A stretch of DNA of 38,859 nt from a virus (lineage: Duplodnaviria > Heunggongvirae > Uroviricota > Caudoviricetes): the IMG/VR virus record IMGVR_UViG_2563366883_000017. One strand, written 5' to 3'. The position numbers and the translations under genes were made by a program. Of this stretch, positions 11,671 to 14,827 are shown one piece after another. Below the pieces are notes generated by a model. That model had not been told where the DNA came from. It made no database searches and saw only the letters and a list, made by a program, of their open reading frames with translations. Position 1 is the first letter of the stretch. Each line of letters opens with the position of its first letter.

Positions 11671-11710
11671 GATTAAATTGATTAAGATTATTCTTACTTG
11701 ATTAATTGTT
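11671..11710 (+). promoter_or_regulatory. Repeat cluster TTGATTAA x2 (11678-11685, 11698-11705) plus GATTAA/GATTAT half-copies; possible promoter/operator of the three-gene operon
   Basis: Direct reading of gattaaaTTGATTAAgattattcttacTTGATTAAttg; TTGATT/ATTAAT with 17-bp spacing resembles a -35/-10 pair. About 75-110 bp upstream of the gene A start. Confidence 0.3.
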
Positions 11711-11778
11711 TTGCGCATGGGCTTGGAAAACCATGAATCAGATCTTCACTAGATAAAACAACGAACTATGGAGGAAGC

Positions 11779-12870
11779 GTGGGCGGCGAAACTAAGAATA
11801 TTGATGAGATTGCAGGTATCATTTCCAGTAGAATTTTTGATGAGTTAGGCTGGAAAACCCAAAATACAACGGATATAAGTTGGGACTGTTGTTTGAGATC
11901 TCATCTAAACGCTAAACAACTTTTATCTGAAAACCCAAAAAAAACTCATCCTACGGATGTAGTCTTCAAATATAAAGATCCTTATTCAGATATAACTCAG
12001 TATATACAAACAGATTTAAAATCTTATTGTGCCAGCACGCTTGACGGTACAAAATCAATATTGAACACTGTACGAAGTTTATCACAACAGGTAGCTTGCG
12101 CGCCAAGAAGTCCTGAGTGGCGGCGTTTATTTGTTGACAGCACAAATGAGAAATATCAAGTTAACGGCCTACTTTTTATATATAATCATGACAATAAATA
12201 TGACTCTGATTTAATTGAGAAATTAAATGGAGCAGCCACAGCAAGTTATGATTTTCCAGAGAACTCTGTGATTGCCGTTTTTGACCCAACTATGATCAGA
12301 TTTTTACTAGATGTTACAGAACACATCGAGACTAGAAGAGGAATTACTGACAAAGTAACACAAGAAACAAATATGTTATGGCAAAAAATTCCTGAGATAG
12401 AGAACTGTACATATTTTTACCCTGACAAACATAATAAAATAGCAACGAAAGGGAAAATCCTTCCAGCCACAATTGAAATGATAACATCTGGGATGATTTT
12501 TTACTCATATGAACACGAATATATTAGAAATGATGGTGGCGATAGAATAAGAAATAAAATATTGAATATATTCTGGAAGGAAGAGGTTGATTCCAGTAAC
12601 CACTTTATATTTCTTTTAGAGTATATATTTAACTATCAATTACTCAATCAATTTGACAAAATATTTGTTATAACTCCGTTCTCATCACACTCAAGCATTC
12701 ATTTGCAATCCGCCATTAATGATTACATAGGAATATATTCTTTCACTCAATCTCATATAGAAACGTTAAAGGAAAAAATAGTATCCATTCCTTTTGTTAA
12801 TCAAAAGCTATCTATATTTGAGTACCAGGTTGCCAGCAAGCAGGTGAATAGAAAATGTCACTTTTCATAA
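11779..12870 (+). CDS. Hypothetical protein A of three-gene low-GC operon, 363 aa, no recognised domain
   Basis: GTG start 11779 preceded by GGAGGAAG; long uninterrupted ORF in strongly AT-rich DNA; stop overlaps the SD of the next gene. Confidence 0.75.
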   Translation: MGGETKNIDEIAGIISSRIFDELGWKTQNTTDISWDCCLRSHLNAKQLLSENPKKTHPTDVVFKYKDPYSDITQYIQTDLKSYCASTLDGTKSILNTVRSLSQQVACAPRSPEWRRLFVDSTNEKYQVNGLLFIYNHDNKYDSDLIEKLNGAATASYDFPENSVIAVFDPTMIRFLLDVTEHIETRRGITDKVTQETNMLWQKIPEIENCTYFYPDKHNKIATKGKILPATIEMITSGMIFYSYEHEYIRNDGGDRIRNKILNIFWKEEVDSSNHFIFLLEYIFNYQLLNQFDKIFVITPFSSHSSIHLQSAINDYIGIYSFTQSHIETLKEKIVSIPFVNQKLSIFEYQVASKQVNRKCHFS

Positions 12871-12880
12871 GGAGTATGAC

Positions 12881-14128
12881 ATGAATAAATATCAAGCTAC
12901 GTTGTTTTCAAACGAAAGTGACATTTATACCGCCCTCCACTCTAACAGTGCAAAAATCACAGATGTTACATTAAGGAAAATCGCCTTCAATAGAGGGATA
13001 ATTTTCCCATCTAACTTATCAAAAGAGGTATTGATAGAAAAATTATCAGACCTGCCATTTTCATATAATCACATCAGAGAAGTACAAGATAAACTGGCAA
13101 CCAAACCCAGCCAAGACGTCTTCTCAGTAAAACGTATATATGAAGAATTTGATATAGAGAAACTCTATGACGTTGTAAACAAAGTGAAAGAAAATAGACC
13201 CAAGTTGCTAGGGCATGAGAAAATTGATCATTACTCAGGCTTGCAAACCTATCATATATCTATTGATTATACTGAGTTTGATTTTAGAAGGGGTAAGTTT
13301 CAGCAGAAAAAATTGTACAGTGGGAGTATAGTTTTTATAGTAAAAAAAGGATATGTTTCAGTAAGATATAACTATACGCCACGCATTTCAGAAATTCTCA
13401 AGCAAATAATTGATACATATTCATCAACAGTTTGTAACAACATAGTTGTCAACGAAATAGATTTATCAAGTATCGTCGATACAGATCTTAGGAATATTTT
13501 TGCTGTTCATCTTTATGATTTTGATGGAAATTATAAAAAAACAGGACTTGAATATGCTGGTCTTGAAAAGGTTAGAGTAAGCAGAATAAAAACATCTCTG
13601 GATATTAATGGAGATAATCTCGAAGGAAATAATAACGAAGAAACACAAGAGTTATTAAACAAGATTTCACCTTCTACAGATAACGAAAATGATGATGACA
13701 TTAATAATCAGGAAATGGCATCTGACGATGATGAAAACCTAACTTTTAACATTAACAATGCCGCGTATGATGGCCTATCATTAGTGAACGCACCTCAAAT
13801 TAAGGAACTGTGCAGTGATGGGTTTTATCGAAGCTTAATTCGATGGAAGTCATTTTCCTCAGTAGTTAAGAATCATACTATAACTTTTGAACTTAGTTTC
13901 GATGATAAATATCTTGGGAAAAATATAAAATTCAGAGCGTTATACAAAGAAAGCAACTCTGCATCCGCAGAGAGAGAAAAACTCAGTGACGCAGACTTTG
14001 ATCAAGTCATGAAACAATTAGAAGATAAAATATTTTTGATTAATGACTTTATTATCGAAGAGCATACCAAGCGATACCCAGTAACGAAAGCTATGTCTTG
14101 CGAGACTTTGAATCAGGAGGCTGGATGA
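12881..14128 (+). CDS. Hypothetical protein B of three-gene operon, 415 aa, two segments joined by an acidic Asn/Asp/Glu-rich linker
   Basis: SD AAGGAG 6 nt before ATG 12881; no Walker A or other recognisable catalytic motif; stop TGA overlaps the start of gene C (ATGA). Confidence 0.8.
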   Translation: MNKYQATLFSNESDIYTALHSNSAKITDVTLRKIAFNRGIIFPSNLSKEVLIEKLSDLPFSYNHIREVQDKLATKPSQDVFSVKRIYEEFDIEKLYDVVNKVKENRPKLLGHEKIDHYSGLQTYHISIDYTEFDFRRGKFQQKKLYSGSIVFIVKKGYVSVRYNYTPRISEILKQIIDTYSSTVCNNIVVNEIDLSSIVDTDLRNIFAVHLYDFDGNYKKTGLEYAGLEKVRVSRIKTSLDINGDNLEGNNNEETQELLNKISPSTDNENDDDINNQEMASDDDENLTFNINNAAYDGLSLVNAPQIKELCSDGFYRSLIRWKSFSSVVKNHTITFELSFDDKYLGKNIKFRALYKESNSASAEREKLSDADFDQVMKQLEDKIFLINDFIIEEHTKRYPVTKAMSCETLNQEAG

Positions 14129-14781
14129 TGATAAAGGTAAAAATTTATAAAGCAGAAAAGGATATAACTAAAAGTGAGTTATTACATAAAGTAAATGACA
14201 ACCTCTATGATGAAGATAAAGGATATGGTTTTCAAATCATTAATAACTCTGAAGTGCTTAAACTAAGATTTACCATGAGAAGCATTAGCAAGCAAAGCTT
14301 AGAATATGCTAATGGCGAGCGTTCAGAGGTTGAAATAGCAACTTACTTAAATGTGGACTTTGGCGTCAGACAAGGGAAAAAAATCATACTATATGCCACT
14401 AATCCTCCATTAAGTATGAAAGTGCCTTATACTATGGTGCAAAAACTATTTGGTGAAGATAGTGGCTTGAGACCAGTAGAATTTGATCTGAGAAAAATTG
14501 TAAATGGTCTTTCTGAGGGCTTTGACATCAAGATAAAATCCATGTCTCTATCTAATATCTCTGTTGATCCTTTTACTTTAGCAAAGACAAAAATAGTAAG
14601 CTCAAAGAATCTCCAAGAAATTTATCAGAATAAATACATGAATAGTTCGGCCGTTTTTGATTCCGTACATTTCTTCGTTAACGGAATTGAAACGGAATTA
14701 TCTAGGACGGGTAGATTCCGTGTGAGAGAGAGTCAGCTTCCAACACTTTTATCCATCTTAGAAACTCTCAGAATTTTGTGA
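14125..14781 (+). CDS. Hypothetical protein C of three-gene operon, 218 aa
   Basis: ATG 14125 with AGGAGG 5 nt upstream, overlapping B stop; followed by a hairpin terminator. Confidence 0.75.
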   Translation: MMIKVKIYKAEKDITKSELLHKVNDNLYDEDKGYGFQIINNSEVLKLRFTMRSISKQSLEYANGERSEVEIATYLNVDFGVRQGKKIILYATNPPLSMKVPYTMVQKLFGEDSGLRPVEFDLRKIVNGLSEGFDIKIKSMSLSNISVDPFTLAKTKIVSSKNLQEIYQNKYMNSSAVFDSVHFFVNGIETELSRTGRFRVRESQLPTLLSILETLRIL

Positions 14782-14798
14782 AATATATAAGGAACTCA

Positions 14799-14827
14799 GG
14801 CCTACTTCGTCAGTAGGCCCCTTTTCC
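14799..14827 (+). terminator. Rho-independent terminator-like hairpin after the three-gene operon
   Basis: GGCCTACT-tcgtc-AGTAGGCC stem-loop followed by CCTTTTCC, 18 nt after the gene C stop. Confidence 0.6.

Follow-up and report, generated by a model that had tools for sequence, protein, structure and literature searches.

A three-gene cassette of a Rac-like prophage as a divergent member of the 3HP anti-phage defence family, with a proposed DNA-end-sensing mechanism and a hairpin-bounded cargo slot

The viral record IMGVR_UViG_2563366883_000017, a stretch of 38,859 nucleotides (nt) to which we refer as the window, carries three consecutive genes, here called A, B and C, between the replication and Q modules of a Rac-like prophage. 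This block almost certainly belongs, as a divergent member, to the 3HP (Rst_3HP) family of anti-phage defence systems, with A, B and C corresponding to the proteins Hp1, Hp2 and Hp3. Taken together, the reading of the block as a 3HP-family moron cassette and the proposal that its nuclease (Hp1) would be licensed by two partners (Hp2 and Hp3) sensing DNA ends have, in our estimate, a probability of roughly 0.6. The block belongs to a known, catalogued family, and what is added here is a mechanistic hypothesis and a hairpin-bounded slot.

PADLOC assigns the three products in gene order, A to Hp1 (PDLC03004, 5e-41), B to Hp2 over the N-terminal half of B only (PDLC03005, 9.6e-11), and C to Hp3 (PDLC03006, 3.8e-11). 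BLASTP comparison with the proteins of the validated system pFR109 gives 33% identity over 318 amino acids (aa) for A (E = 9e-49), 25% over 204 aa for B (E = 7e-12), and 22% over 206 aa for C (E = 2e-12). The layout is also that of 3HP, with three adjacent genes running in the same direction on the plus strand in the order Hp1-Hp2-Hp3. The validated system is the "hp + hp + hp" set of E. coli E1114 from the P2 tin-old hotspot (Rousset et al. 2022, Table S2, PMC9122126); cloned under its native promoter, it protects against P1, the only one of the eight phages that it stopped (PMC9122126). By homology to this system, an anti-phage role of the window cassette is supported, as the sequence-only reading had guessed when it took the block for accessory cargo of an anti-phage type; its further suggestion of a novel system is contradicted by the same PADLOC and BLASTP matches.

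Exhaustive searching with a profile made from the Hp2 alignment returned 420 cluster representatives, 288 of them at E ≤ 1e-10. Of the 150 matches listed for this window Hp2 profile, 146 representatives were newly retrieved, and 144 of these are recognised by the validated Hp2. For A, B and C alike, full-length homologues (40–95% identity) number in the dozens in Enterobacterales, Vibrio, Aeromonas and Shewanella, and a PHROG family exists for each, which marks the three reading frames as real genes. The same gene order and coupling recur in a chromosomal island of Aeromonas caviae (L002; 355, 359 and 224 aa) and in an integrase/AlpA island of Leclercia adjoining mutS (L004; 340, 399 and 222 aa). 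In the literature searched, census papers were the only reports on 3HP, and no published mechanism was found.

Gene A (positions 11779–12870, plus strand) starts with GTG and encodes 363 aa, gene B (12881–14128, plus strand) encodes 415 aa, and gene C (14125–14781, plus strand) encodes 218 aa, counted from the ATG that overlaps the stop codon of B. The ribosome-binding site of A is GGAGG (11770–11774), 4 nt 5' of the GTG, that of B is AGGAG (12870–12874), overlapping the A stop codon TAA (12868–12870), and that of C is AGGAGG (14115–14120). The A stop codon sits within TAAGGAG, 10 nt 5' of the ATG of B, and the stop codon TGA of B and the start codon of C overlap as ATGA; the three genes are translationally coupled, as read directly in these junctions. 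The three reading frames with their Shine–Dalgarno sequences and both overlaps had been described from the letters by the sequence-only reading, and the description is confirmed.

The same reading had recognised no familiar motif in the block, but protein A bears the signature of a PD-(D/E)xK nuclease. Its motif, H57-P-x-D60 ... D79-L-K81, satisfies the catalytic D ... (D/E)-x-K pattern. Among 49 aligned homologues (26–87% identity), no variation is seen at H57, P58, D60, D79, L80, K81, S82 or Y83, and E4 is nearly invariant. The predicted catalytic residues are H57, D60, D79 and K81. The domain PF26115 (PDDEXK_GAPS4) is precomputed on all 71 of 71 A homologues, several of which are named "GAPS4 PD-(D/E)XK nuclease domain-containing protein" in UniRef, and the identical protein of E. 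coli ES5 is labelled a PD-(D/E)XK nuclease domain protein by PGAP. Local Pfam and NCBIfam scans of A, B and C gave nothing useful and did not report PF26115 for A; this null result is not proof of absence, because the precomputed tables, UniRef and PGAP all give a call of the PF26115 type on A.

GAPS4 is a system of two genes, GAPS4a and GAPS4b, in which GAPS4a is an enzyme of the PD-(D/E)xK type; its motif reads HGxD-SxK, and the D59A substitution abolishes defence (Mahata et al. 2025, 10.1101/2025.09.07.674715). With the GAPS4a and GAPS4b sequences taken from the supplementary files of that paper, plain BLASTP aligned A with GAPS4a at E = 1.6e-5, and hhalign comparison of the Hp1 family profile with GAPS4a gave a probability of 96.2–96.4 and E = 1.1e-9. 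Since the latter alignment spans 277 columns, nearly end to end, Hp1 is, as judged by sequence comparison, a homologue of GAPS4a over its whole length and beyond the catalytic core. D60 and K81 of A align with the Asp and the Lys of GAPS4a, D60 being the partner of the very Asp whose change to Ala abolishes defence.

Proteins B and C are more distant from characterised families. Neither has a Pfam match at E ≤ 1 except a weak HeH match, neither has an NCBIfam match, searches of the Protein Data Bank (PDB) with sequences and profiles gave no relatives for either, and the Pfam scan placed neither in the RdgC family (PF04381). Structure predictions of B and C were built on alignments of 58 and 41 homologues. 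The C model is confident, with a predicted local distance difference test score (pLDDT) of 92.5 and a predicted template modelling score (pTM) of 0.84, and a Foldseek search with it placed both solved RdgC structures in the top three (E = 2.7e-6 and 6.7e-6, probability 1.00, TM 0.52–0.53). The structures matched next, Chl4/Iml3 and CENP-N/L, form heterodimers. C is compact and basic, with a pI of 9.2.

The B model has a pLDDT of 77 overall, with confident cores at about residues 80–235 and 290–400 and a disordered acidic segment at 244–289. B can be divided into a SAP/HeH-like helical N-domain (about 12–72), an RdgC-like body (about 81–238 and 291–400), and an acidic disordered linker (239–290) with a net charge of −15; the folded N-terminal parts are basic. 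The SAP match agrees with the weak HeH/LEM match and is consistent with Ish1, the HHpred match given by Rousset for the validated Hp2 (PMC9122126). None of the proteins A, B and C contains a hydrophobic segment. According to the models, B and C are each predicted to adopt the RdgC fold.

Residues 31–37 of C include an invariant K-G-[YF]-G-F sequence similar to RNP-1 of cold-shock domains, with PDB profile matches to CspB at E of about 1.7. We judged this likeness to be probably due to chance, the predicted fold being RdgC-like and not OB. The motif could mark a strand that contacts nucleic acid.

GAPS4 assembles as a 2:2 heterotetramer, represented in an AF3 model by a ring of two GAPS4b subunits carrying two nucleases; its DNase is triggered by DNA breaks, and its phage range is reported to be broad (10.1101/2025.09.07.674715). 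The full-length homology of Hp1, the predicted ring-forming DNA-binding folds and this published ring lead us to propose that 3HP may work like GAPS4. Hp2 and Hp3 would pair as a large and a small subunit of a hetero-assembly comparable to Chl4-Iml3 and CENP-N/CENP-L, which are large/small heterodimers of RdgC-like fold. The assembly would encircle or clamp DNA, and its loading would need a free DNA end; linear DNA injected by a phage, or DNA that is broken, would serve as the trigger. Capture of DNA would then release, de-repress or position the Hp1 nuclease, which would degrade DNA without discriminating self from non-self, and the infection would be aborted. More speculatively, the acidic linker of Hp2 might be an autoinhibitory DNA mimic that keeps the complex off until real DNA competes. 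Considered apart from the family assignment, this end-sensing ring mechanism has, by analogy with GAPS4, somewhat less than an even chance of being right.

The same family and the same nuclease might instead be coupled to another signal, with the RdgC-like proteins sensing a specific phage protein, filaments of RecA, or intermediates of recombination or replication. RdgC of E. coli is an antagonist of RecA, and the lambda switch is modulated by RexA. Such a trigger would suit the RdgC fold predicted for B and C, the finding that exclusion by RexA does not strictly require its DNA binding (PMC11077077), and the narrow range of the validated 3HP system (P1 only) in comparison with the broad range of GAPS4. 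The homology between Hp1 and GAPS4a, however, includes non-catalytic regions that plausibly contact the partner, and nothing points to a protein trigger; we give this alternative about the standing of an outside candidate, clearly behind sensing of DNA ends.

Several observations weigh against the cassette being a 3HP system that senses DNA ends. The identity of its proteins to those of the validated system is only 22–33%, and that system stopped one of eight phages. The link to RdgC comes from predicted structures with 8–10% identity, the fold is made of common TBP-like alpha/beta units, and the B model contains the low-confidence stretches noted above. Profiles of B and C showed no similarity to GAPS4b of RiKo by hhalign (one GAPS4b sequence was compared), and a phmmer search with GAPS4b gave no match among 146 Hp2 representatives; homology of the sensor part is therefore not claimed. 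Comparison of the Hp2 and Hp3 profiles with each other gave no signal, and so paralogy of the two is not claimed either. A consensus scan found no good sigma-70 site at 11480–11780. Finally, that the partners form a hetero-ring, that Hp1 docks on it and that DNA ends are the trigger are proposals made by analogy.

Distribution data also bear on the function of the cassette. At least 80% of it is present in 11 of 5,426 complete E. coli genomes, a rarity that fits the statement, in the sequence-only reading, that the Rac prophage of K-12 lacks such genes; no record of the phage collection contains at least 80% of it. The cassette DNA (window positions 11557–14914) occurs in four mobile-element contexts. 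These are a Rac-like prophage at ttcA (the window and L001, DNA identity 100%), a Qin-like lambdoid prophage, where the cassette lies between the DUF977 gene and hokD (L011, 97.6%), an island that has IS3 and an integrase gene on its flanks and adjoins trbJ/trbL (L010, 96.8%), and a P2-like prophage, where it occupies a tail-gene slot.

A function in the DNA metabolism of the carrier phage itself, such as recombination, end-processing or counteraction of RecBCD, would accord with the joining of a nuclease to RdgC-like, recombination-associated folds and with the prophage replication genes that adjoin the cassette. The distribution of the cassette, however, disfavours this explanation, since nearly all related prophages do without it (11 of 5,426 genomes have it), unrelated cargo, including a SIR2 set, fills the same slot elsewhere, and the cassette also resides in the tail-gene slot of a P2-like prophage and in an island beside conjugative-transfer genes. 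As a homologue of the cassette is moreover a validated defence system, we regard a role in phage DNA metabolism as highly improbable.

The presence of the cassette on mobile elements only, the tight translational coupling of A, B and C, and the HigA and VbhA antitoxin genes that neighbour it in the island L010 would also be expected of an addiction module resembling a toxin–antitoxin pair, in which Hp1 is the toxin, Hp2 and Hp3 restrain it, the carrier element is stabilised, and defence is a side effect. Against this stand the protection against P1 conferred by the homologous system under its native promoter (PMC9122126) and the make-up of the cassette, which contains no small labile protein of the antitoxin kind and no helix-turn-helix (HTH) regulator. 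We consider an addiction module unlikely, and a defence system that senses DNA ends remains the preferred reading.

Sequences that may control expression travel with the genes. The spacer upstream of A is 297 base pairs (bp) long (11482–11778), close to the 300 bp noted earlier, and has the repeats noted with it, two copies of TTGATTAA at 11678–11685 and 11698–11705, 20 bp apart; in the whole window there are 7 copies, with 2.9 expected. The region 11580–11778 (plus strand), which contains the TTGATTAA pair and the GGAGG, is near-identical in all four contexts and presumably carries a promoter or operator. Downstream of C, a stem-loop, GGCCTACT-TCGTC-AGTAGGCC followed by CCTTTT (14799–14825, plus strand; the stem-loop itself 14799–14819), is likewise conserved in four of four contexts. 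It has a G+C-rich stem of 8 bp, a free energy of −17.7 kcal/mol and z = −3.05, its T-tract is short, and a simple consensus scan for terminators did not call it. The hairpin terminator of the sequence-only reading is upheld as a stem-loop, and it is a likely, if weak, intrinsic terminator for the three genes. The block, which comes with an upstream region and a hairpin of its own, is the self-contained unit that had been proposed.

The base composition of the block had been described as AT-rich in comparison with its flanks. This holds for the upstream side, where the GC content is 0.48–0.54 over 3 kb, against 0.31–0.35 over 12000–14500, but not for the downstream side, where low GC (0.29–0.41) runs on past the cassette at 15000–16500. 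That stretch, which is conserved in many Rac-like prophages, contains only a DUF1971/TehB-family gene (15397–15759, minus strand), and about 800 bp without a convincing reading frame precede the DUF1367 gene at 16549.

The cassette DNA has sharply defined ends. In all four contexts the shared DNA begins precisely at 11557 and runs to about 14905–14914, and a hairpin lies at either boundary. The left one (L-type), GTCCGCT TTGTGCCAGG AGCGGA at 11557–11579, is where the shared DNA starts; within or at the end of the right one (R-type), GTCCGCT CTTCACTCAA AGCGGAC at 14890–14913, the shared DNA of the P2-like and island contexts ends. The pattern GTCCGCT-N8-12-AGCGGA has these 2 sites in the window, with 0 expected, and the loops of GTCCGCT-N10-AGCGGA(C) are of two types, TTGTGCCAGG and CTTCGCTCAA. 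The P2-like context has outer flanks that are complementary to each other, AATCTGACA directly before GTCCGCT and TGTCAGATT directly after AGCAGAC, and in phage P2 itself degenerate copies of the hairpin flank fun(Z).

Hairpins of this kind also bound other cargo. The sequence-only reading had suggested comparing Rac-like prophages for variable cargo between conserved flanks, and this is the pattern found: three other sets lie between the DUF977 and DUF1971 genes with the same flanks. One (L006, 2839–5912) consists of a TetR regulator, an adenosine deaminase, an NTP pyrophosphatase and a SIR2 protein (ThsA-like in PADLOC, 7e-32), another (L007, 2806–4785) of two hypothetical proteins (320 and 333 aa) that weakly match HEPN_RES_NTD1 and GNAT, and the third (L008, 2927–4822) of a 4-fold beta-flower protein and a 471-aa protein. 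The L-type hairpin precedes the cargo in L007 and L008, and the R-type hairpin closes it in L006 and L008. None of the three sets is a complete PADLOC system, and they may therefore be candidates for uncharacterised defence. The two-gene set of L007 was compared with GAPS4 and Hp1 and is unrelated to them.

The hairpin positions in these loci are 6168 in L006, 2683 in L007, and 2683 and 4906 in L008; those in further loci are 7001 and 10334 in L009, 7001, 10334 and 13308 in L010, 5477 and 8810 in L011, and about 15320 and 17430 in L012 (P2). A scan of viral contigs for the motif found at least 120 loci. Raw counts of the motif, a 14-base pattern, are uninformative in viral contigs, and the loop analysis alone was used: at 74 of the 135 sites in these loci the loop is within two mismatches of either loop type, for which the chance is about 8e-4 per site. 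Pairs of sites 1–2 kb apart bracket one or two reading frames in nine viral-contig loci, and the bracketed cargo includes a GmrSD_N/NsnA-like protein with HEPN, NUDIX with a HAD hydrolase, and GNAT with HTH.

The hairpins may serve as sites of recombination, or as common sequence by which homologous exchange is anchored. Work by Nilsson and colleagues from 2004 on site-specific recombination in P2-like phages, cited by Rousset, reportedly may already describe them. A broader reading joins the two parts of this analysis: 3HP would be a three-component cousin of GAPS4, in which a heterodimer of the two RdgC-like proteins Hp2 and Hp3 replaces the homodimeric GAPS4b ring, becomes threaded on DNA at free ends and activates a GAPS4a-like DNase, and the cassette would be one of a larger group of moron cassettes that unrelated temperate phages exchange through the hairpins, acting as recombination sites, from the Z/fun slot of P2 to the lambdoid slot after the DUF977 gene and the reverse. 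We advance this combination tentatively, as less probable than the end-sensing mechanism by itself.

The segment 7001–13330 of L010 (E. coli TD225-C4) continues after the cassette with an integrase fragment, a cation-diffusion transporter, a cytochrome b and a VbhA-antitoxin pair, and it is closed by a third hairpin, of the R-type with a P2-type outer flank, 3 kb further on; it looks like two tandem cassettes moved into the island next to trbJ/trbL and IS3. The match in E. coli 30COLEC, one of the 11 genomes (NZ_CP070930.1, 2525936–2530388), falls into two pieces, with an IS30-like ISApl1 transposase annotated within the cassette, and this copy is probably inactivated.

The surroundings of the cassette in the window are those of the identical locus annotated in E. 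coli ES5. To the left the gene order is intR-xisR-ralR-recT-recE-racC-kilR-sieB ... DUF977, followed by A, B and C; to the right come the DUF1971/TehB-family gene on the minus strand, DUF1367-DUF1364-DUF1133 ... lysis ... trkG, and ttcA adjoins. The mechanically called reading frame at 10651–11481 (276 aa) fuses a DUF1627 part (residues 59–160) with a DUF977 part (143–273), related prophages such as L007 have two separate genes there (253 and 138 aa), and PGAP treats the DUF1627 part of the identical ES5 locus as a truncated pseudogene. A deletion probably occurred just 5' of the cassette.

For 3HP, which has been catalogued since 2022 as "three hypothetical proteins", the locus, the alignments and the models together yield a testable mechanism, a GAPS4a-type DNase with two RdgC-like DNA binders, which ties the family to GAPS4 and to exclusion of the RexA type. 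The hairpin-bounded slot could help to account for the movement of defence cassettes from P2-like to lambdoid prophages and back, and the boundary hairpins offer a sequence handle for mining further cargo.

Among known systems, Chl4-Iml3 and CENP-N/CENP-L share with B and C only the predicted fold; they are eukaryotic structural proteins that have no nuclease partner. RdgC (E. coli 2OWL, P. aeruginosa 2OWY) dimerises into a ring around double-stranded DNA, which the title of 2OWY describes as "a novel toroidal architecture for DNA binding". C is about two-thirds of the size of RdgC, B differs from it by the acidic linker that interrupts the body and by the extra SAP-like domain, both have low identity to RdgC (8–10%) and no Pfam RdgC match, and a ring of B and C is a proposal. 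Lambda RexA (8TWQ), which takes part in phage exclusion, binds DNA and resembles RdgC (Adams et al. 2024, PMC11077077). Like it, the cassette would supply its prophage with an exclusion component that folds like RdgC and binds DNA non-specifically; a Rex pair, consisting of a RexA-like protein and the multi-pass membrane partner RexB, is not present in the cassette.

The nearest mechanistic model is GAPS4. The window system has three genes instead of two, its motif is H-P-x-D...D-x-K, whereas that of GAPS4a is H-G-x-D...S-x-K, and Hp2 and Hp3 have no detectable similarity to GAPS4b. The two systems are alike in the nuclease, Hp1 being a near full-length homologue of GAPS4a, and in the partners, proposed to form a ring in both; the 3HP proposal takes over from GAPS4 the licensing of the DNase by ends or breaks in DNA. 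The closest relative in composition is the validated 3HP system pFR109. The C-terminal half of its Hp2 has no pairwise alignment to B of the window, and its carrier is the P2 tin-old locus, whereas that of the window cassette is a Rac-like lambdoid prophage. Both systems have three co-directional genes in the same order and of similar sizes (333, 359 and 227 aa in pFR109; 363, 415 and 218 aa in the window), both Hp2 proteins contain an acidic linker, and both systems are prophage cargo.

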